A stretch of 63,439 nt of DNA, the filler included, from Atractiella rhizophila (Eukaryota): assembly GCA_021432655.1 (NCBI GenBank). It is 3 parts of 3 records of this genome, joined end to end, with 100 filler letters (N's around TTAATTAATTAA, not from the genome) between each part and the next. Parts side by side here need not be neighbours in the genome. Positions count along the whole stretch, not along the records: positions 51,216 to 63,439 come from MU271837.1; 2 more parts are not named here. One strand, given 5' to 3'. Position 1 is the first letter of the stretch. Each line of letters opens with the position of its first letter. Of this stretch, positions 13,522 through 58,874 are shown piece after piece. The notes under the pieces were generated by a model that worked only from the letters and a program-made list of their open reading frames with translations, ran no database searches and was not told the origin of the DNA. The position numbers were made by a program, and so were the translations under genes.

Positions 13522-14573
13522 ATGGATAAAGTTCACTCAATCGACGAGAGCAAGCCCCCCTCAATTGAGAGTCCAACAAAAATTTCAGTTAGCCAATCTT
13601 CGAACTCCTNNNNNNNNNNNNNNNNNNNNNNNNNNNNNNNNNNNNNNNNNNNNNNNNNNNNNNNNNNNNNNNNNNNNNNNNNNNNNNNNNNNNNNNNNNN
13701 NNNNNNNNNNNNNNNNNNNNNNNNNNNNNNNNNNNNNNNNNNNNNNNNNNNNNNNNNNNNNNNNNNNNNNNNNNNNNNNNNNNNNNNNNNNNNNNNNNNN
13801 NNNNNNNNNNNNNNNNNNNNNNNNNNNNNNNNNNNNNNNNNNNNNNNNNNNNNNNNNNNNNNNNNNNNNNNNNNNNNNNNNNNNNNNNNNNNNNNNNNNN
13901 NNNNNNNNNNNNNNNNNNNNNNNNNNNNNNNNNNNNNNNNNNNNNNNNNNNNNNNNNNNNNNNNNNNNNNNNNNNNNNNNNNNNNNNNNNNNNNNNNNNN
14001 NNNNNNNNNNNNNNNNNNNNNNNNNNNNNNNNNNNNNNNNNNNNNNNNNNNNNNNNNNNNNNNNNNNNNNNNNNNNNNNNNNNNNNNNNNNNNNNNNNNN
14101 NNNNNNNNNNNNNNNNNNNNNNNNNNNNNNNNNNNNNNNNNNNNNNNNNNNNNNNNNNNNNNNNNNNNNNNNNNNNNNNNNNNNNNNNNNNNNNNNNNNN
14201 NNNNNNNNNNNNNNNNNNNNNNNNNNNNNNNNNNNNNNNNNNNNNNNNNNNNNNNNNNNNNNNNNNNNNNNNNNNNNNNNNNNNNNNNNNNNNNNNNNNN
14301 NNNNNNNNNNNNNNNNNNNNNNNNNNNNNNNNNNNNNNNNNNNNNNNNNNNNNNNNNTGTCTCAGTCAACAGTAGTAACTCCCCGATTACCTCTGAACTC
14401 TTTTCGACGAATAGAGTACGGATCAGGCCATGGAAGCGAGGGACACGAGGAAAACGGGTAGGCACTAAATGAGATACGAGTAGAACCCATCTCTGACATG
14501 TCGTACTATTTTTCTCTACAGCGATTCAGATGTCATCGGCTTACAATTTAAGTCATTACCTGGACAGTTCTGA
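13522..14573 (+). CDS. Hypothetical protein spanning an assembly gap (most of the sequence missing)
   Basis: ATG-initiated S/P-rich frame enters the gap; open frame exits, followed by an intron-like GTAGGC..CTACAG (~14458-14521) and a short terminal exon. Confidence 0.25.
13610..14357. other. Assembly gap (748 N)
   Basis: Run of N. Confidence 1.
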
Positions 14574-25540: not shown

Positions 25541-25640
25541 NNNNNNNNNNNNNNNNNNNNNNNNNNNNNNNNNNNNNNNNNNNNTTAATTAATTAANNNN
25601 NNNNNNNNNNNNNNNNNNNNNNNNNNNNNNNNNNNNNNNN
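25541..25640. other. 100-nt scaffold gap with TTAATTAATTAA linker
   Basis: Ns flanking TTAATTAATTAA at 25585-25596. Confidence 0.98.
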
Positions 25641-26053: not shown

Positions 26054-27115
26054 GTGTCTCGCGAGTTACCTGCTGTTTCGCGAGTTACCTGCTGTTTCGC
26101 GAGTTACCTGCTGTTTCGCGAGTTACCTGCTGTGCTGTCTCGCGAGTTTGCTGCTGTCTCGCGAGTTTGCAACTTAGTGTTTGGGTTCACCTGGCCAGTT
26201 TACTATCTCGCAAGTTGGCCATCAAGTGAGTTTGCTCTCTCACGTTTGCAGTCTGGCGAGTTTGCAGTCTGGCGAGTTTGCATTCTTGCAAGCTCACATT
26301 CTCGCTAGTTGGCCGTCTCGCGGGTTTGCCGTCTTGCGAGCTGGCCGTCTCGCGAGTTTGCAACCTAGCGTTTTGGCTCACCTCGCTAGTTTGCTATCTC
26401 GCGAGTTGGCCGTCTCCCGAGTTTGCTCTCTCGCGTTTGCAGTTTCTCGAGTTTGCATGCTCGCCAGTTGGCCATCTCGCGAGTTTGCTCTCTCGCATTT
26501 GTGGTCTCGCGAGTTTGCATTCTCGCTAGTTTTCTCCCTCGCGTTTGCTGTCTCGCGAGTTTGCATTCTCGCTACTTTCCTGTCTCGCTAGTTTGCTGTC
26601 TCGCGAGTTTGCATTCTCGCTAGTTTGCATTCTCGCGTTGGCAGTCTCGCGAGTGGGCATACTCGCGAGTGGGCATGTGGGCATGCTCGCGAGTTTGCAT
26701 TCTCGCGAGTTTCGAGTTTGTTGCAGTCTCGCGTTTGCAGTCTCACGAGTTTGCATTCTCGCTAGTTTGCTCTCTCGCATTGGCAGTCTCGCGAGTGGGC
26801 ATGCTCGCGAGTTGGCCATCTTGCGAGTTTGCTCTCTCGCGTATTCTTGCTAGTTGGCCGTCTCCCTGGTTTGCTGTCTTGTGAGTTGGACGTCTCGCGA
26901 GTGCTCTTCGCTAGTTTGCTGTCTCACGAGTTTGTTGCTCTCTTGCGAGTTAGCAACCTAGCGTTTCGCCTCGCTAGTTTGCTGTCTCGCGAGTTGGCCA
27001 TCTCGTGAGTTGGCAGTCTCGCGAGTTAGCTGTCTCGCGAGTTTGTTGCCGTCTCGCGAGTTTGCAACCTAGCGTTTGGGTTCGCCTCGCTAGGTTGCTA
27101 TCTCGCGAGTTGGCT
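26054..27115. repeat. Minisatellite of ~15-19-bp units built on the palindrome CTCGCGAG
   Basis: Dozens of (G)TCTCGCGAGTTTGC units with CpG-decayed variants. Confidence 0.95.
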
Positions 27116-27183
27116 GTCACCCATATCACATCCGACAGCACTCGCGAGTTGACATGCGAACCACTCTGCGAAGTGGCACCCGA

Positions 27184-27863
27184 GCCACTTTGCAACGAAA
27201 AAAGCATCCAAATAACTCAGCCCAACAGCACTTCCGAGATGACACACAAACCACTGCAATGAACCAACACCCGCTGAACTCATCCAGGACCACTCGGGAG
27301 GTGGCCCCAAATTACTTTGCAATGAACCAACAGCACTTACGAGGCAACATGCGAACGACTTTGCAATGAAACCAAAACCCATACAACTCCATCCGACAGC
27401 ACTCACGAAGCGAGATGCAAACCTCTTTGCAACGAAACCAACACACATACAACTTCCTCCAACAGCACTTGCAGGTGGCATTGACATGTGAACCACATAG
27501 CATAGCTGCATCTCAACCACTTTGCAACGACGAAAAAAGCATCCAAATAACTCAGCCCAACAGCACTTCCGAGATGACACACAAACCACTGCAATGAACC
27601 AACACCCGCTGAACTCATCCAGGACCACTCGGGAGGTGGCCCCAAATTACTTTGCAATGAACCAACAGCACTTACGAGGCAACATGCGAACGACTTTGCA
27701 ATGAAACCAAAACCCATACAACTCCATCCGACAGCACTCACGAAGCGAGATGCAAACCTCTTTGCAACGAAACCAACACACATACAACTTCCTCCAACAG
27801 CACTTGCAGGTGGCATTGACATGTGAACCACATAGCATAGCTGCATCTCAACCACTTTGCAAC
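27184..27863. repeat. Near-identical 335-bp tandem duplication made of family A subunits
   Basis: Identical ORF-track peptides offset by 335 nt (27312/27647; 27415/27750). Confidence 0.93.
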
Positions 27864-28091
27864 GGTACCAACACCCACTTCAACATAACTCCACTCGGCA
27901 TCGCTTGCACGGTGAGAACCACTTCACAACGAAATCAGCATCCGGTGCACTTCAATGAGTGCGAATGCCATCTGACCTAACCTCTTCACCTTACCCAACT
28001 CACCTGGCCTCCTTCTCCTCGTTCCATTCACCTGCTTCGAGGTCACAAGGTGCAGGCACAAGTCATTTCAGCTCCCTACCCAGTCATTGCT

Positions 28092-28800
28092 ATGGGAGAA
28101 AGAAGTGGACGCATAGGCTGCCTGGATCGATCCCAATAGCAAAATCTTGAGCATAGGATAACCTCTGAGGTCTAAGTCCCGCCACAAGTACCATCTAAGC
28201 CTGCGGATGTGCTGAGTATCCTGAAGCCTTTAGTTATTCATGCAAACTGCCTGTGCTGCCTCTGAACAGTGCCTGCCCACTTCTGACACCCAAACCCCTC
28301 TTGAGAACTTGACCTTCCTTTTACCATGGGAGAAAGAAGTGGACGCTTAGGTCGCCTTGATCGATCCCACAGCAAATCTCAGGAACAAGTACACTTTCAG
28401 GTTTTGGGTCTCCTAAGCGCACACTTCGCTTTCTGCCAGTAAGATATATACAAAGTGCCACAAGATGCTCCTCCGAAGACCAAGAACCCACCTTCAAAAC
28501 CCAAATCATTTTGAGCGCCCGACCTTTGGCTCACCTTGGGAGAAAGAAGTGGACGCATAGGTCGCCTTGATCAATCCCACAGCAAACCTCAGGAACAAGT
28601 GCACAGTCCAGCTTCGGGTCTCTCCAGCAAGCACCTTGCCTTCTGCGAGCAAATGTGCAAGGTGCTCCAGCTGCCCCAAAGAGTAAGTGCCCACCTCAAT
28701 GACCCGAACCCCTTTTCAGCGCCAGCCTTTGGTTTGCCATGGGAGAAAGAAGTGGACGCATAGGTCGCCTTGATCGATCCCACAGCAAACCGCAGGACCG
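28092..28800. repeat. Four-copy repeat with a conserved ~50-bp core every 203-234 bp
   Basis: TGGGAGAAAGAAGTGGACGCATAGGTCGCCTTGATCGATCCCACAGCAAA at ~28093, 28327, 28537, 28740. Confidence 0.9.
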
Positions 28801-29024
28801 AGTGCTGTTTGAGGATTCAGATCCTCCAAGTGAGCACTTTACCTTCGGCCAGCAAGAGCAACGAAAACACAGCAGGGGACAAATTCGGACAAACACTTAC
28901 CGGTGCATTTCTTGGGGGATCCTGAGAGGAGTCAGCCTTATAAGGACTTTCTGAGAGCCCCTTCGGGGAAGTAGAGCCTCAGGGGCTTGGGATCACTTTG
29001 GGGGGCTCTGGTTCAGGTTCACTC

Positions 29025-30000
29025 TTGCGAAGCCTAGCTCGCTTCAGCAAAGGTATGTTCGTTGCCATGAAGTCAAGTTCACTCCAACAAAGACAGGCTC
29101 GCTGGGACTAAGTCAGTTCGCTCTCGCGACCTCCTGTCACTTCAATGAAGCCAGGGCTACTCAAGCGACGCAAGACTACTTCCTGTTCGCTTCAGCAAAG
29201 GCAGACTCGCTGGGGCAAAGTCAGTTGACTCCAACAAAGTCTGGCTTGCCTGGGCAAAGAGCAGTTCGCTGGAGTGAAGCAAGCCAGACTTGCTCGGGTG
29301 AAGTGCGTTCGCTCCAGCAAGGCCAGGCTCACTCCTGCGAAGTAAGACTCACTCGGGCGAACTGCAGTTTGCTGGAGCAAAGTCAGACTTGCTTTGGCAA
29401 AGCCAGTTCGCTTCAATGAAGTGCAGTTCGCTCTAGCGAAGCCAGGCTTGCTGGGGCGAAATCAGTTCGCTCCTGCGAAGCCCAGCTCGCTCGGTGCAGT
29501 TCGCTCCTATGAAGCCCAGCTCGCTCGGGCGAAGTGCAGTTCGCTCTAGCGAAGGCAGGCTCGCTAGGACGAAGTCAGTATGCTCCTGCGAAGCCTGGCT
29601 CGCTCTAGCGAAGTGCAGTTCCCTCTAGCGAAGCCAGGCTCGCTGGGACGAAATCAGTTCGCTCCAGCGAAGTCAGGCTCGCTCCAGGGAAGTGCACTTC
29701 GCTCTAGCGAAGGCAGGCTCGCTAGGACGAAGTTCAGTATGCTCCTGCGAAGCCCAGCTCGCTCGGTGCAGTTCGCTCCTACGAAGCCCAGCTCGCTTGG
29801 GCGAAGCCAGTTCGCTTCAGTGAAGTCTGGCTCGCTCCGGCAAAGTGCAGTTTGCTCCTGCGAAGCCTGGCTCGTTCCAGCGAAGTGCAGTTCGCTCCAG
29901 TGCACCTTGGCTTGCTCAGGTGAAGTGTAGTTCGCTGGGTTGCGGCCAGACTTGCTTGGGTGAAATCACTTCGCTCCTGCAAAGCCTGGCTCGCTCTGGT
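29025..30000. repeat. ~20-bp minisatellite of small inverted-repeat units
   Basis: Alternating GCGAAGTGCAGTTCGCTCTA / GCGAAGCCAGGCTCGCTGGG units. Confidence 0.9.
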
Positions 30001-35663: not shown

Positions 35664-36154
35664 ATGTCCTCAGTTTTCTTTCGACAGGGGGACAATGAAG
35701 GAGCGCTGGCGGCATTGGAGGAGGCTAGGAGGAACTTCGTGGCGATAGGAGATCCTCTGGGAGAGGCGAACTGCATCCAATCGAAAGGGGACATCCTCTT
35801 TCAACAGGGGGAGAACGAGGGAGCGCTGGAAGCATTGGAGGAGGCGAGGAGGAAGTTCGTGGCAATAGGAGAACCTGTGGGGGAAGCGAACTGCATCCAA
35901 TCGAAAGGGGACATTCTTTATCGACAGGGGGACAACGAGGGAGCGGTGGCGGCATTCGAGGAAGCGAGGAAGAAGTTCGTGGCGATGGGAGATCCTCAGG
36001 GAGAGGCGAACTGCGTCTTATCGAAAGGGGACATCCTCTTTCTACAGGGGGACAACGAGGCAGCGCGGGCGGTATTCGAGGAGGCGAGGAAGAAGTTCGT
36101 GGCAATAGGAGATCCTCTGGGAGAGGCGAACTGCGTCAAATCGAAAGGGGACAT
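35664..36154 (+). pseudogene. Orphan array of four 40-aa TPR repeats (fungal NLR-type), truncated by a telomeric tract
   Basis: 120-bp units encoding QG(D/E)NEGALAALEEARRKFVAIGDPLGEANCIQSKGDILF; no NACHT/NB-ARC visible upstream. Confidence 0.8.
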
Positions 36155-36155
36155 A

Positions 36156-36250
36156 AACCCTAACCCTAACCCTAACCCTAACCCTAACCCTAACCCTAAC
36201 CCTAACCCTAACCCTAACCCTAACCCTAACCCTAACCCTAACCCTAACCC
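36156..36250 (+). repeat. Interstitial telomeric repeat AACCC(TAACCC)15
   Basis: Perfect hexamer array 36161-36250. Confidence 0.98.
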
Positions 36251-37591
36251 CAATGACGAGTTGGATCACTTGTCCTCACCACGTACAAACTGGCAGGGAA
36301 GGCGGCAGCAGGGGTAATGTGACCAAGGTGGTGGGCAGATAATAGCGGAAACGCGAACGAGACGGTGGAAGCGGAGGCAACACAGAATGCGGTACGACGA
36401 AGGAGGCACCACACTTAGTCGGAAGGGGACAGGGGGAAAGCAGAAATTATAAGAATGAAGAAAAACAAGTCGGAGCGTGCCTCGAGCTTCAGCTCATTCG
36501 CGAGCTAAATTGTCTAGTACACGTATGTGTGGCAGCCGTGCCTGTACGCATCGAAAGCCATCCATTAGAGCAAGGAAAGAAAATGTACATTCTTCTGTAA
36601 CGAACACTGGACAGGCTCCTAAGCTCCTTGCTTCTGTGCAACCCCGCAATCACCCTGAACATCCACAACACACCAGACGGGAAATTCAAGGTTACCAACA
36701 TGCTTGACGGCATATGGAACAGAGAGGGGATAAGCAGATGTAGCGGGGAAGGGTGACTTACTGGCCTGCTGGAACTCCTGTAACCTCGTAATCCTCACCT
36801 GTCACTCTCCTCTCCATCCTACACCCTTTCCCTCTCTTCTTCCGCCACAAGCATCCTCCTCTCAATAACCTCCTTGCTCACCCGTGCGCATCTTGTTCCG
36901 AGACTCCTCCAACTCCTCCTTCAACTGACAACCATTCCGGAAGCATTCCAGAAGTTCGACTTGGATTGGGAGGTGAAGAGCGGAGAGCGGAGAAGCATGA
37001 AATTGGAAGGACAGATGGAGCTTGGAGGTGACCGTGATGGGGTTCTCGCTGTGGAATGTCGACATGTTGCTGTCGTCGTCCACACTTTCGAGTTGTAGGT
37101 AAGATGGGAGGAAGTCCGCTCGGCGGCTAGTTAGCGCTAGTTGATGTGGTAAATGTGAAACATCGCGGAAGTCCACAATCCACCTTCGCTGAGACCTTTA
37201 AAAGTGCCACAGAGAGCTCACAAGCCATCGCAACACCAGGGAGGGAAACAGCATCACTTTGACAGCAATTGCCGCAGGTAAGACGTTCGGCTCCGCTAAG
37301 CCCGGCCAAAGGCCGGACGCCCGACAGGTGACCGGAACTTGTTTCTAAGTGGCCAAAGTGGTGGCCGTGACAGCGTGGTCGCGGAGGTAATTCAAGTGCC
37401 GGTCGCGGAGCTTACCTCCGCGACCCGGAAATCCTGTCCGCGGAGGTAATTTTGCCCGTCGTGCAAGCTCTCAACAGTCGGAACAGCTCCTTTCCGCAAC
37501 GCCGCTGAAGTTTACTACTGACGCGAGCGCACGCTACTCGTCTTCATCTTCGGCCCAACAGAGGCCCGCCTATGTTCGTGCTGAGTTGGAT

Positions 37592-51115: not shown

Positions 51116-51215
51116 NNNNNNNNNNNNNNNNNNNNNNNNNNNNNNNNNNNNNNNNNNNNTTAATTAATTAANNNNNNNNNNNNNNNNNNNNNNNNNNNNN
51201 NNNNNNNNNNNNNNN
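51116..51215. other. 100-nt scaffold gap with TTAATTAATTAA linker
   Basis: Ns flanking TTAATTAATTAA at 51160-51171. Confidence 0.98.
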
Positions 51216-53213
51216 CCCCAACGTCTAGTTTCATTTTAGCTCCTATTCGACTTCTTCGATCTTCTCTGCAGCTTCTTTAACTTTCCACTTGAACTACTTC
51301 CATACAGATACGACGGAGCAGAAGCAACTACATGTACCGGGTTACCAAAGTGTCGAGCACCCTTTCTTTTTAGTGAGAACCTAGTTTATCTTCGTAATTT
51401 ATCGTTCGAGTTCCTACCGCTCCTACGAGTTCGTTTTGAGTTTCCGCTAGCACGGCTCCACCTTTTAGCAGAGTTACTTGAGGTTCGCGCCAAGTTGCTG
51501 GACCTTCGCTTCGTGCTTGTCCATTGCTTCCTAGAGTCACTGCGTCACCTACTTTCCAGTGCAAATTACCGCCTCTTGGTTGTCTTCCTCCTAGTAAACC
51601 CACTTGATCTCGTCCTTTAAGTTCGCACCTCTCTAGTTCCATCTCAGAGAGGTCAACAAAGAGGACAACCAACCTGACTTAAAAGCGTGTAGTCGTGGGT
51701 AACTGCTACTACGACCTTCGCTTTCGCTCGATTGGGCCAAATAACTGCTAGTTGAGTTTCTTAAACTTTTCGATCTTTGGCTCATGGTTTTCGTTGACCG
51801 AGCTGCACTACCACTGGAGCAGCAAGAGGCTCTCTTTTTACCGCGAGAGACACTGCTTGACCTTCTTTTCGCACCGGCACACGAGCTTGACCTCGTCCTC
51901 TTGAGATTTAGGCAAGTGAGGTACAGCGATGACCAGAGGCTCTAGCTTTAGTTCTTGTTTCCCCACCTCTCATAATAAGCATCGGATAAGCTCGACGCAC
52001 CTCAATAGTCGTAGGAGCGACTTCTTTCACTCAATACAATACAAACCGGCACGGCGCTAGATTAGTAGGGGCTTTCACTGCCTTGCGCTGGCTTTCTAAC
52101 GGAGAGATCTTCTGGTCGATGTCAGCCAACAACGAGTTCGCCTCTCACTTGCCCCACTGGCGGTCTTCGTGGACCTTCGGAACCTCAGTGTCGAAGCTTG
52201 CAAGTTCCTGTTGTACTGGCGGGAGTAAAGCCTTGACTTGCTATAGCAGCGAACGTTGAGTTTGCATAGGAGAGGTCCTCTTTTCGGAAATGGAAAGGAT
52301 GGGAACTGACCGCGCGAGCTGCTGTTACGTTCGTAAAATGCGTAACTTGTCCGACATGCACAGTCTTACCCTTTAGACTTTCTTAGCTAGTAGTGAGCTT
52401 TACGGTGCTACCTTCTGTTGTAAGTTCTTTAGCGGTTTGAGTTTTGTTGTCCACTACTGGACTTCTCCATACAAAAGGTAGCTGATGACTTACTACAAGT
52501 GCGATCCGCAGTCAGCTGAGCTTCGTCTTTGCTTTCTACATCTCGCCGAGTTTTCGCTTCAAAGGTTAAACGTCCGCTCAGAGCTCTCGAGGTTCTTCCT
52601 CCCAGAACTATTCCTGTTCAGGTAGTTTTGGGAGTTGTTTCTGGAGCTTTTTAGAGCGTTCGTTTCGCTTCTAGAGTGACCTTTCAACCTTTTCGTTGTT
52701 CCTTAGAGTCTACCGGATTCGTTCCTTTTTCCCCTGAATTTTTGGGTCGAGGTCCATGTGAACATAGTAAATAGGACCAAGTTTTCGAGATTGTAACTTA
52801 CACGTCTGTTTTTAGCCACTCGAGCTCTGTCGAAGTAGACTCGAACTACGACGTGCAAGGCTCACCGTACTGTTCCTCTTCCTTGACGAACTCGCCATCC
52901 GTCAGGAGAAGTGGTGACTGTCGTTAGATTCGTTTACATTTTGTCAGAGGACCTGCTTGTCAGACGATCTTGATTTCTTTTTCGCCTTCCCCTTCTTTTC
53001 TAGGCTGTCGATTTCTTGGAACACCTAGCGGACCTTTGCTGCAATGCTGTTCTCGCACGTATGTTCCGTCTCTACCTGCGTGCACACGCTCGACGTTCCC
53101 TTCTTCCAACTCAAAGTAGTAAGACGAGTGTAACGGAGATAAGTGAAGATAAGGAGTGCGAAATCTAGAGTTGGCGGAAGCTAGTGGAGTCGAGCTAGAC
53201 ATGCGCCGCTCCC
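51216..53213. other. Mirror-reversed (reversed, not complemented) segment holding the 3' exons of the adjacent coiled-coil gene
   Basis: No sensible ORF on either real strand; the base-by-base complement read left to right gives GVADQSKIEDKLKKLEETSKKLKGELDE.. with canonical introns. Confidence 0.93.
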
Positions 53214-56200
53214 TTTTGATTCGATCTTCGCTAGGGCGTCCCCTAACTGAGCACCCAGATCTTTCACCTTCTCATCCATTTCACGTCCCCTCTGTTCGAA
53301 CTGCTCGACCGCCGTCTTGGATAACTGAAGTTCAGTCTGGAGGCGTTCAACCTCTGCGTTGTTTGTCTCTACGGCAAAAGCTTGTTTCACCTCCATATCC
53401 GCAACGAGCTGGACACGTATGTCAGACTCGACTTAACCTGCACAGCTCATACAACGAGACACTCACCTCCAAACCACGATTACGAACGTTGTCCAACTCC
53501 TGGAAAGCAGCTTGCATTTCACCCAGTTTGAGCTTAAAGTTCTGCAGCATTGCGTCTCGTCGAACCTTCCTCGCATCTTCTTTCTCTAAGAATTTCAGGA
53601 TGGGCTCAGAAAGACGACGAATAGCTTCGTGAGACCTGTACCGGACATATCAAAACTTGTGGCCGTAATGGGTAAAGGTTTTGTACCAATTAAACTTGTC
53701 ACTTGCTTTCTTGGCCGTACTTTCGTAAAGATTGACCATATCGTCAACATACTGGCGAAGCTCGTCGTTCTCTTCCCTTAGTTCCCGTTCCCGCAGTTCC
53801 GTGTTCGGAGAAAGGCTTCGGGGCTACCAGTCATCGTTAATATCTAGCCAAACCACCGTCATGGAAGCTCACAATCAATTTTTCTCTCGTAGGCAAGTCG
53901 TTTAGAGCCGTTTCGATCTCGAGATGAAGCTGGTCCAATTGGGTAACTGCGCTCCGAGCTTCCGGAAATCCAAGTGAGTGCTCTGACGCTCTGCGTGCCT
54001 CGTCTTCCATCGCGAGGTAAGATGTTTCCGCCTCCTTCATTGCGTTTCTAGTAAGATCCGTGTGTGCGTTGATGTCTTGCGACCGACCTCGAAAATCTGT
54101 TGCATCTCGCTTGACTTTACCTGAGGCAAAGAGTACGGAGGATGTGGGAGAAATGGGATCGGCTCCGACCACAGGAGCTCCCATTGAAGGAAAGAGGGGT
54201 TGTTCTCCGGAAGCAGGAGTGGCTGGAAGCTGTACCGGGGTATTCGCAGAAGTTGAGATGTCGGTGACTACAGGAACTGGAGATGGAGGTACCTCTGCCG
54301 CAACAGGTTGCAGATCTTCTGTCGCCTGGCCTTTGCCTTTGCCTTTCTTCCCCTTCTTCTTGTTTTGGCTTTCTTCTTGTTTCTCAAGATCACGAGGGGT
54401 GCCTTCCAGCTTTCCAGAATTATCAACCTGCTTCTCCGAAGCCACCACCTTCACCTCCTCCGGCTCCTCTTTTTCTTCCTTTTCTCCCTTCTTCTTCTTG
54501 TCCTTCTTCTTTTTGTTTCCCTTGCCCCCCCTCTCGTCGCCCTCAATGATGGGTTCTTTAGTCACTGCCGTTATCGCATTCACAGCCGCCGCATCAAGCG
54601 TTGGATCCAATGCTACTGCTCCATCAACCGTAAACTGCGCTTCAACAGTAGTTTTCGGATCTTGAGTCGTAGGATCAAGTATCGGGTCGACTATAGTATC
54701 TGTCCTCTCGGGAACCGGTTCTACTGACACGTCCCCTGGAGGAACAGTTTGGACTGGCTCTGTTTTAGCCTCCTGTGTCGACGGAGCCTCAAGCCTAGGC
54801 TCTAATACCTCTTCTGGTGCAGGTGCTGTCGCGACTTCCTGACCAGGAGGAGGATCAAGTTCTGACGTATCATCCACAGCAGGAATAACAAATGTGGATG
54901 CTGTGTCTTCCGTCCCAGGAGGAGCAGGTGTGATGGCAGCAGCATCCACAGAGCTTTGTGCCGCTTGATCGTCAGCAGATTGTCCTGTCGTCTCCCCTTC
55001 TACAGGATTGACTTCCCCAAGAGCAGCGAGAGGGACCGTATCACCTGAAGGTTCATTCCGCGGAACAGCATTCGCATCAATACCATTGTCAGTCGGGACA
55101 GGTATGCCTTCTTCTGGATTCCCCTGAGCAGCGGCTTGATTATCGTCTATCGCAGCCGCACCTTGCTCATTCAGTTCGCCTTTCGTTGCATCCTGATCAA
55201 AAAATGATGGATCTTCTGCTGCTGGAGTCGTGAAGCCAGTCTTAGGTGTTGAAGGGGTGGTGGGAGGACTTTTCCAATCAAAGTTATCGACTGACTGGCT
55301 CCTCCCCTTCTTCTTCTTCTTCTTCCCCTTCTCTGTTAAAGACGTCGAATCCCCCGGATCCACCGTATTTCCATCCGTAGTCATCTACGAGCGGTTAGCA
55401 CAGATGGAGCTTGGTTGAGTGCACTTGCCAGTGTAGTGGCATCGGGACCAGCCGCCACATCCGTCACTCCCTGGCAGTCTCCCGCGACTTTCGATTCGTC
55501 CGCCTCACTTCCCGCAGCGTTCGATTCAGCTACACCAGCTCCCGAAACTTTCGTGTCGTCTTTGTCATCAGGCGTCTTAGGAGAAAGCTCCTGATTCTCC
55601 TGTGTAGGGCTGCTTGGACGCGTCGTCGTCGTACTCTCCGTCCCTCCTTTTCCTTTCTTCTTTTTCTTGCTCTTTGAGGTTGCCACCATCGTGGCTACTT
55701 TCCCGTCCGCAGCATCCATTATCTCAAGAATCGGCTTCTCCTCTTGTTCCCCTCCTGTAGGAGCAGGAGTCGTGGAGCCCGTAGCACCGGTGCTATTGGC
55801 TCCGTCCTTCCCCCTCTTCCCCTTCTTCTTCTTCTTCGAACCCTCGTTCCAATTATCTTCAGCGAAATGATTCTCTTCCCCTCCTTCTGCTTCCTGTTCT
55901 CCCAACTCTGGTGCAGCCTGAACACCCACCGTTTTCTCGCCATCGTTCGACTCTTCGATAATAGTAGCCGAATCCTTGGTGATTGGTGTGGTAGGATTCT
56001 CGACTTCCGGTTGCAAGGCTTCCGCATTCTCTGTCTCCCCGACGTTATCCTGGACGGATGTGGATACTTCTGGATTGTTCTCAACTTCCGGTTGCAAGGC
56101 TTCCGCATTCTCTGGGGTCTCCTCGACCTTATCCTGGATGGACGTGGATACTTCTGGACTAGTCGGCTCTGCTTCTCCATCAGCCTTCACTTCATCCTCT

Positions 56201-58874
56201 GCAGTCGCATCGGCAGCTTGACTAGTACGGTCTTCCGTTGAGTTGCCTGTTGAAGACCCTTTCTTGTTCTTTTTGTTTTTCTTCTGCACATTAGAAAACG
56301 CGAAATCCTCATTTACTTCTTCCTCTGGCTTGTCTTGGGGGTCACCGCCATCTTGATCTTGCGGCACAAGCTGAGCAAGGGCATTTCCAGCCGGAGTGCT
56401 TGGCGCCGTCGCCTCTTTTTCTTGTCCACTCCCCTTCTTTCCCTTCCCTTTTCCCTTCTTTCCTTTCCCAGACATCGGCTTCGCGCTCGAGTTTTCAACA
56501 GCAGGAATTACAGCAGCAGGAGCAGGAACGTGGGGTGTACGTGGTGGAGAGATTGGCAAAGAATCAGTAGTAGGCAAAACAGTCGACTCCTTTACTTCAA
56601 CGGTGGCGGTTTTCCCTTTCGATTTCGATTTCGCCTTCGCCTCACTGCGAGGAGAAAGAGGCGGTGAGATAGGCAATTCCTTTGGAGGAGTCTTGTCCTT
56701 TTCCTCCTTGGAGTCAGCAGCAGCTCCGTTGACGGCAACTGTTTCGGGGGGAGGTTGCCCTGGAAGTTGGTCTGGAGGAGGGAGGGGAGAACGTGATGGG
56801 GTATCGTTCGTCGGTTCCGGCCTGGTGGGGATTGGAGGGACTGAGGCGGCGGCCCAGGGATTGGCGGGAGGTACGAAGGATGATTGGGGTCGAGGGAGGT
56901 CTTCGAACGGATTTATATCTCGATTGAGGTCGAGGGGAGGGATGGAATCGAGCCTGGTCCTTCTAGCTGCCGCTGCGCTGGCACTGGCACTAGCACTGGT
57001 GGCGGTTGTCTGGAGCTGTTGAGGGGGAGTGGATGTGGTTGAGGATTTGGCGGATGAGGAATTCTTCAAGATGGACTTGCGCGTCTCCCTCGCTGCAGCT
57101 TGCGCTTGGGCAGTCTTTGAAGTGGTCGGAGCTCCGAAATCTTTTGTTCCCAAGGCACGGGGAGAGTATGCGAGTTCTTCGTCCGGCTCCGGACTGTGAG
57201 GGAGAGGGAAATCCTTTGGATCCCAATCCTGTCTTGCTCCACGAAACGACGCAGCAGAAGACCTCTTCGCCTTTGCCGTTGGAGAGGTCGTCTCGATCGT
57301 TCTTTGACCGTCAAGTTCCCTTGACTTTTGTTCGAGGTCGGCTAGAATTGCCTTTTCCATCAGGCTCAAAGTTCCGATGGGCTTGTTTTTCTCCGAACCA
57401 TGCGATTGAGTTTGATCCAAACGGGTCAGCTTGGGCATCAAAGTGGTTGGATCGTGATTGTCGATGTTGAAACTGGGGGAGGAAATGGAGATGGATTCGG
57501 ATGGGAGGGTGAAGGCGGGGTGGGGAGGGTCCAGGTGCCAGCTAGGCGAATCCTGGGTGATACTAGCTATAGCTGAATTCAAAAATTAATTTTCATCTTC
57601 ATCCATTGGGAGAGGGAGAAAACGCAGGGGGAAGGCGTGAAACGTACAAGTAGATATAACACTGCTAAATCGCTGATCGAGTTTTTGTTTGAAATTGGCA
57701 TTCCTCTCCATTCCTTCTCCCCTGCCCCTCCCCGCTCCCAAACCTCCAATCCGAGGGCTAGCGAACCCTCCCAATGTTCCTCTCGAAGGGGAACCAAATC
57801 CGGGAAAGGGAGACGCAGGTCTCATAATCTCACTGGCCCTTCCCAGCCCTGGCGCCGCCGCTCCTAAGCCGCTGGCGCTGATGGCAGGGCTCTCCATATC
57901 CGGTATAGTCTTGCCAGTGCTCGAGGGTGTATCTGTCCGTTTGAGATAGTGAGACAAATCTGGGGTCCGAACTGGACCTCCAGCAGAGAAAGGGATGGAT
58001 TGACCGAACGGATTGGAGGAACGAGATGTGGATGGACGAGGAGAGGCGGCCGAAGCAGACGCGGTGTTGAAGAGAGGGTTCGACGGATCGGGTGGAGCTG
58101 GAGAATTGGCCAAGGAGGGGATGAGGGAAGAGCGACCGTCCCTCGATCCGGGGGAAGGTAAGGAGGCATACATGTTCATGGCGGCCACCGCGCCAGCGAT
58201 CGCACTCGTACTAGCGGTCGACGATGACGATGCAGTTGTTGGCTCCTCCCCTTCATTCGAAAGCACGCTAGCGGCTGAAGAAGCCTTATCGCTCTCGTCT
58301 CTCTTGAATCTCCAGGTCTGGCTGATGGGTTCGTTCGGAAACCTGACCCTCCTCAGTCCTGCATCCTCAGCGGCGGATCCGGGCCTGGACGGCGTTCTTG
58401 AGCTCTGAAGTTTGGTTTGCTTGAGGGCCGGGATGAGGACAGGACGGTCTTCACCAAGCGAGGACAAATTGTTGTTGAGCATTTGGGGGATCGATGGACG
58501 GAGGGCTGAGGAACTGGAAGGTTCGAAGGAATCGAAGGCTTTCTCGGACGGCGTGTCTTCTCCTGGAGCGCGATTGGGTTGGGAGACTAAGGAGAAGGAG
58601 GTGTGGCCATCCGGTCGCTTGCTGCTGCCCCCGTTGGATGGGGAGAAGGTGGTGGTTATGGACGAGTGGAAAGAGGAGTCTGGGCGTGCGCCTTTGCGAG
58701 ATGTGGATTCGTGGGTTTCCAATTCTTCGGAAGCGTTCAAGCTCGTGAAATGCTACGAGATAAACACCATTCATCAACGCCTTTCTAAACAACTGGCAGG
58801 CAAGCCGTGAGGGGTCACGGAAGGGAGGGGTGACTGACCTCCTGAGAGAAGTTGTTCCCAAATCCAATAGGCAT
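53214..58874 (-). CDS. Very large low-complexity / coiled-coil protein of unknown family (continues into the mirrored segment)
   Basis: Long exons 57586-58740, 55381-57582, 53837-55384 joined by short introns; S/P-rich N-terminus, KKKKG patches, then E/K/L heptad region; start approximate. Confidence 0.8.

Follow-up and report, generated by a model that had tools for sequence, protein, structure and literature searches.

The locus

The window analysed here is the whole stretch of 63,439 nucleotides of Atractiella rhizophila DNA, filler included. It consists of three contigs held together by artificial joiners at 25541-25640 and 51116-51215, which are identical and have the form N44 + TTAATTAATTAA + N44. 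Since the second joiner occupies 51116-51215, position 51216 is the first base of the third contig, and this is also where the block of interest, 51216-53213, begins. The first-pass annotation of this DNA had placed the start of the block at a contig edge, and the position of the joiner bears this out. It had also described the edges as ambiguous by 3 nt, in agreement with the runs CCCC at 51216-51219 and CCC at 53211-53213. The length of the block is 1998 nt or less and is not a round 2000. Elsewhere in the window, a scaffold gap of 748 N is found at 13610-14357, inside the first contig. The features of the locus are collected in Table 1.

Table 1. Features at the start of the third contig and in the adjoining gene. 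Mirror exon pieces and mirror introns are those modelled in the complement of the block read left to right.
Feature	Position	Strand	Remarks
Contig joiner	51116..51215	.	N44 + TTAATTAATTAA + N44; block begins at next base
Reversed, non-complemented block	51216..53213	.	1998 nt, edges ambiguous by 3 nt; true sequence end for end
Mirror exon piece 1	51216..51300	.	85 nt; extends real exon 53408-53214; overhangs of read contigs cover first 29 nt
Mirror intron 1	51301..51354	.	54 nt, GTATGT..TCACAG
Mirror exon piece 2	51355..51639	.	285 nt
Mirror intron 2	51640..51694	.	55 nt, GTAGAG..CATCAG
Mirror exon piece 3	51695..52027	.	333 nt
Mirror intron 3	52028..52076	.	49 nt, GTGAGT..CGAAAG
Mirror exon piece 4	52077..52467	.	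391 nt
Mirror intron 4	52468..52513	.	46 nt, GTATGT..CGTCAG
Mirror exon piece 5	52514..52754	.	241 nt
Mirror intron 5	52755..52806	.	52 nt, GTACAC..GTGCAG (model only)
Mirror exon piece 6	52807..52895	.	89 nt
Mirror intron 6	52896..52945	.	50 nt, GTAGGC..AAACAG (model only)
Mirror exon piece 7	52946..53106	.	161 nt
Mirror intron 7	53107..53165	.	59 nt, GTTGAG..CTTTAG
Mirror exon piece 8	53166..53213	.	48 nt, open at 53213
TTTT at join	53214..53217	-	contigs of three runs have one letter; 3 extra nt, one Lys codon
Last correctly printed exon	53214..53408	-	65 codons; read contigs cover 53218-53408
Intron	53409..53466	-	58 nt, GT..AG; spliced out in X3, X4 contigs
Exon	53467..53633	-	sequence, P0001 and read contigs
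Intron	53634..53684	-	51 nt; spliced out in X3, X4, X7
Exon	53685..53823	-	sequence, P0001 and read contigs
Intron	53824..53872	-	49 nt; spliced out in X3, X4, X7
Large exon	53873..55384	-	disordered, Lys/Glu/Pro-rich stretch
Intron	55385..55428	-	44 nt, GC..AG; spliced out in X4, X7 contigs and in P0001
Upstream gene part	55429..58764	-	P0002 match to 58764; at least one further intron near 57.6 kb

To the right of the block lies a gene on the minus strand. Spliced contigs of public reads confirm four of its introns, all of them to the right of the block, and the presence of such contigs in the runs X3, X4 and X7 shows that the gene is transcribed and that these introns are real. Two public proteins correspond to this gene. 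The first, P0001 ('hypothetical protein BT69DRAFT_956677 [Atractiella rhizophila]', 920 amino acid residues), is 100% identical to the 515-codon exon. At its end it reads into the intron 53409-53466 and stops at about 53425, which is about 210 nt short of the block. It starts near 56384, while the open frame and the second protein, P0002, run on to at least 58764. The P0001 model thus looks truncated at both ends. P0002 (1491 residues) is near-identical in the N-terminal part and ends before the coiled-coil part, and its match indicates an extent of the gene to at least 58764. A minus-strand stretch of 25 codons at about 57572-57646, with an in-frame stop at 57586-57588, is missing from P0002; it is probably an intron of 75 nt. 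The predicted product is a hypothetical protein that is disordered in its N-terminal half and has a coiled-coil-like tail rich in Glu, Leu and Lys.

Reading frames in the block

It is important to compare the reading frames of the block on the two real strands with those of its complement read from left to right. The longest stop-free frames are 126, 66 and 63 codons on the printed plus strand and 102, 52 and 102 codons on the real minus strand, while the complement read left to right has stop-free frames of 124, 179 and 181 codons. These values uphold the earlier proposal that only the left-to-right complement codes and that neither real strand does. The peptides quoted in that proposal are present in the complement reading, and its translation is a Glu/Leu/Lys-rich, coiled-coil-like text.

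When the real exon 53408-53214 is followed by the spliced complement reading, 609 codons with 0 stops are obtained. The mirror-coded share of this reading comprises 8 exon pieces with a total of 1633 nt, or 544 codons. The join to the minus-strand gene at 53214 is in frame, as had been claimed, with the peptides ..KIESK and GVADQSK.. meeting there. The first-pass annotation had also named a check, namely that reversal of the block should give a continuous spliced open reading frame into 53214, and this is what was found. Its four introns are all present in the complement reading; as a set they were incomplete, since the block model has seven, with 52468-52513, 52755-52806 and 52896-52945 added. 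In the sequence model all seven mirror introns have GT..AG ends and sizes of 46-59 nt, and their removal keeps the frame. These modelled sizes agree with the 58, 51, 49 and 44 nt of the introns confirmed by spliced contigs to the right of the block. The intron model was checked by hand and replaced a search for introns of maximum length, now superseded, in which some of the introns chosen were wrong (51522-51609 among them).

At 53213 no stop has yet been reached. After correction this position is the true end of the contig, and the 3' end of the gene is therefore absent from the assembly.

The longest spliced open reading frame was also determined under permissive conditions, in which any GT..AG of 45-60 nt could be removed, with 100 dinucleotide shuffles as a control. 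The complement reading gave 1657 nt versus 1345 and 1377 nt on the real strands. The maximum among the shuffles was 1518 nt, and 0 of the 100 reached 1657 nt. This test discriminates poorly, and little weight is given to it.

The lengths reached by the real strands under permissive splicing could be taken in favor of a different explanation, in which the block is an ordinary inversion (a reverse complement), or is non-coding DNA with a complement that is open by chance. Misassembled inversions at contig ends are common, which also speaks for an inversion. However, the open codons number at most 102 on the reverse complement and 126 on the printed strand, and the gene is not continued on either. 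Together with the word polarity and the read contigs described below, this makes an ordinary inversion or a chance reading extremely improbable.

Several searches for relatives of the gene and of the block were made. A phmmer search with P0001 as query, made against 1.84 billion representatives, returned only two proteins at E <= 0.001, namely P0001 itself and P0002. A tblastn search with P0001 and P0002 gave no match within the block in its printed or in its reversed form. When the 65-residue exon 53214-53408 was used in a word search of proteins of 115-2000 residues in a collection of 5.8 billion proteins, 103 candidates were obtained, of which 0 match. An exact 30-nt pattern had 0 matches in metagenome contigs, and the 595 stretches matched in a protein-pattern scan included no relative. 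No homologue over the mirror-coded part was thus found by the protein, metagenome or pattern searches. In Pfam, P0001 and P0002 belong to 0 families, and the 65-residue exon gave matches to seven coiled-coil-type families, all below the cut-offs and none above the gathering score.

Word polarity

The direction in which the block is written can be assessed independently of coding by a k-mer polarity test, in which the log-likelihood ratio of each word against its letter-reversed form is calculated. The model was trained on the rest of the window with both strands pooled, and it is therefore strand-symmetric. With k=5 the block has a polarity of -214.7 bits, while the adjacent 2 kb, 53214-55211, has +161.3 bits. 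The 58 other tiles of 1 kb have a mean of +92.7 with a standard deviation of 38.8 at k=5. The number of positive tiles among these 58 is 57 at k=4 and at k=5, and 58 at k=6. The only negative value elsewhere at k=5 is that of the tile at 36001, which is repeat-rich and has -26.1. The block 51216-53213 is the sole strongly backwards-written stretch within the window.

The reversed polarity of the words is difficult to combine with an ordinary inversion, because a reverse complement would leave a strand-symmetric model unchanged. A test of this type detects reversed blocks without a gene model and could be used to screen assemblies.

Two repeats lie in the neighborhood of the negative tile. A 120-nt unit is repeated four times in tandem at 35677-36154, within an open reading frame on the plus strand. 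At about 36036-36563 there is a simple repeat which gives (GL)n in one reading; it belongs to the one tile besides the block with negative polarity.

A scan for other mirrored blocks by codon usage flagged the region 25-31 kb and a few single tiles. These candidates were rejected, the region being tandem-repeat DNA of normal polarity. The scan is biased, as the low-complexity gene at 54-57 kb dominated its training, and at 25-31 kb it was misled by the tandem repeats in 26244-30000. This section, the start of the second contig, is densely filled with tandem repeats, whose periods are 16, 40/79, 171/335 and 210 nt; at 27195-27864 a 335-nt unit is repeated perfectly in two copies. The word polarity of 26244-30000 is normal.

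Public reads across the join

Four public runs (X1, X3, X4 and X7) were compared with 51216-57215. The runs X1, X3 and X4 represent three samples from two named studies and one run without a study, and each of them has a different organism label. Reads cover 20 of 20 bins to the right of the block in X1, X3 and X4, and 12 of 20 in X7. Within the block the depth is 0 in 10 of 10 bins in all four runs, a zero cover that carries no evidential weight. The word shares of the best runs (0.56, 0.55 and 0.51 of 643) fit a stretch of which one third is absent and are likewise not counted as evidence.

The evidence comes from the contigs that reach the join. One contig each in X1, X3 and X4 fits the window from 53218 rightwards and then continues to the left in an overhang that disagrees with the printed letters. 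This overhang has a length of 101 letters in X1 and 222 in X3; in X4 it is longer than 255 letters, with 1276 of the 2833 letters of a spliced contig (record 15) lying beyond 53218. A 30-letter consensus of the overhangs was compared by eye with the printed letters from 51244 to 51216 taken backwards, that is, over 29 nt of the 2-kb block. It agrees at 28 of 29 positions in X1 and X3, and at 28 of 29 in X4. The lone mismatch is at 51233 in X1 and X3 and at 51224 in X4.

The first-pass annotation had proposed that reads would fit the corrected order if the block were an artefact. All three runs that reach the junction do continue in the order of the reversed block over the 29 nt compared. The match of 28 of 29 letters cannot be a coincidence, as a chance reading of non-coding DNA would require, and it is a plain reversal, rather than a reverse complement, that gives a join with a restored frame and in agreement with the reads. 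The conventional order exists in the DNA or RNA of three samples, which are those of close relatives or alleles and not formally the source molecule. Because the overhangs of X1, X3 and X4 match the reversed start of the block, the real DNA and RNA are in conventional order at the junction and the printed order is almost certainly a string reversal.

The break had been expected at 53213/53214. The fit of the reads ends at 53218 and not at 53214. The four letters at 53214-53217 are replaced by a single letter in the contigs of the three runs, which is C in X1 and X3 and G in X4. The reading frame holds with or without the 3 extra nucleotides, which may be an allele or a scar of an in-silico join. 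The three runs also differ from the window at 53377 and 53400.

Some other features of the runs were observed. At 53930-54197 X1 and X3 have two contig versions, one with 0 differences and the other with 8-13, at a depth ratio of about 2:1, which suggests two haplotypes or strains in these samples. The runs X3 and X4, labelled '?' and 'DNA?', have intron-free contigs. As introns are removed in them, X3 and X4 contain RNA or cDNA.

The reads also bear on the possibility that the isolate which was sequenced physically has the block in its printed order, the tail of the gene having been plainly reversed by an unknown copying chemistry. The sequence is printed in this way, and the runs compared are not proven to be those of the source isolate. 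However, all three junction-reaching runs continue in the conventional order, and the block lies at an edge of the assembly. In addition, splice signals and an open frame are intact in the reversed reading, although a stretch that cannot be expressed would have no use for them. If true, a physical reversal would need copying that reads 5' to 3' while writing 5' to 3' without complementing. We know of no polymerase or recombinase that gives a non-complemented reversal, and this was counted against the idea. A physical reversal must be considered vanishingly improbable.

Origin of the printed order

The strands of DNA have polarity, and every physical inversion is a reverse complement. A plain reversal is therefore without a known biological route. 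The block 51216-53213 is almost certainly an in-silico artefact and not a real biological feature. This is in line with the first-pass annotation, which had considered an artefact of assembly, gap-filling or in-silico handling as most likely, and it is supported by the overhangs of X1, X3 and X4.

The organism itself would have conventional DNA at this locus. The minus-strand gene would run from at least 58764 to 53214, continue through the letters printed as 51216 to 53213, and leave the contig at its end. The first 1998 letters of the contig would have been written in the opposite order without complementing. An equivalent route would be that a piece of the opposite strand was complemented but not reversed, and was then placed to the left of the rest. 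The step at which this happened could be the patching or finishing of a contig end in the public assembly, later handling of files, or the planting of a decoy.

It is possible, although the less favored alternative, that the reversal was introduced after the public assembly, through the handling of files during construction of the window or as a deliberate decoy or control. As far as the figure legend in PMC3531169 describes it, reversal without complementation is a standard recipe for decoy DNA. The window is itself a construction of three contigs and artificial linkers, and the block starts exactly at the start of a contig and is close to 2 kb long. On the other hand, P0001 breaks off some 210 nt short of the block, in an intron that is read through, and the exon 53214-53408 occurs in no public protein, as is expected if the public scaffold was already defective. 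The length is also not a round 2000 nt. These points are not decisive. The early stop of P0001 and the absence of the exon from public proteins lead us to lean towards an origin in the public assembly, which we favor moderately over a later introduction.

The biological significance of the block is none, and its value is for curation. The defect conceals the 544 mirror-coded codons from finders of open reading frames and from homology searches; their 1633 nt are close to the roughly 1.7 kb of hidden exons estimated earlier. It also leaves the gene with a public model of 920 residues whose end lies within an intron. With 51216-53213 reversed, the gene could be annotated up to the end of the contig.

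Relation to known systems

In the literature on reversed sequences, only uses as designed controls were found, and no paper found describes such a defect in assemblies. According to the legend of figure 1 in the Dfam paper (PMC3531169), reversed, non-complemented DNA serves as a decoy ('overextension trap'). The block resembles benchmark decoys, as presented in that legend, in being the product of the same string operation, by which the composition is kept while homology on the real strands, open reading frames and word polarity are destroyed. In contrast to such decoys, the block adjoins, in register, the sequence that genuinely continues it, within a presented genome contig.

The block can also be compared with the inversions produced by misassembly at contig ends. 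It shares with them the location at a contig edge, the broken gene model and a breakpoint without read support. After a misassembled inversion, however, the gene can still be read from the opposite strand, while here neither real strand codes.

The gene differs from members of named families, as P0001 and P0002 are without a Pfam family and the 65-residue exon has sub-threshold coiled-coil matches alone. The corrected locus is nevertheless similar to fungal short-intron genes for long coiled-coil-like proteins, being composed of multiple exons separated by GT-AG introns of 44-59 nt, with one GC-AG intron.
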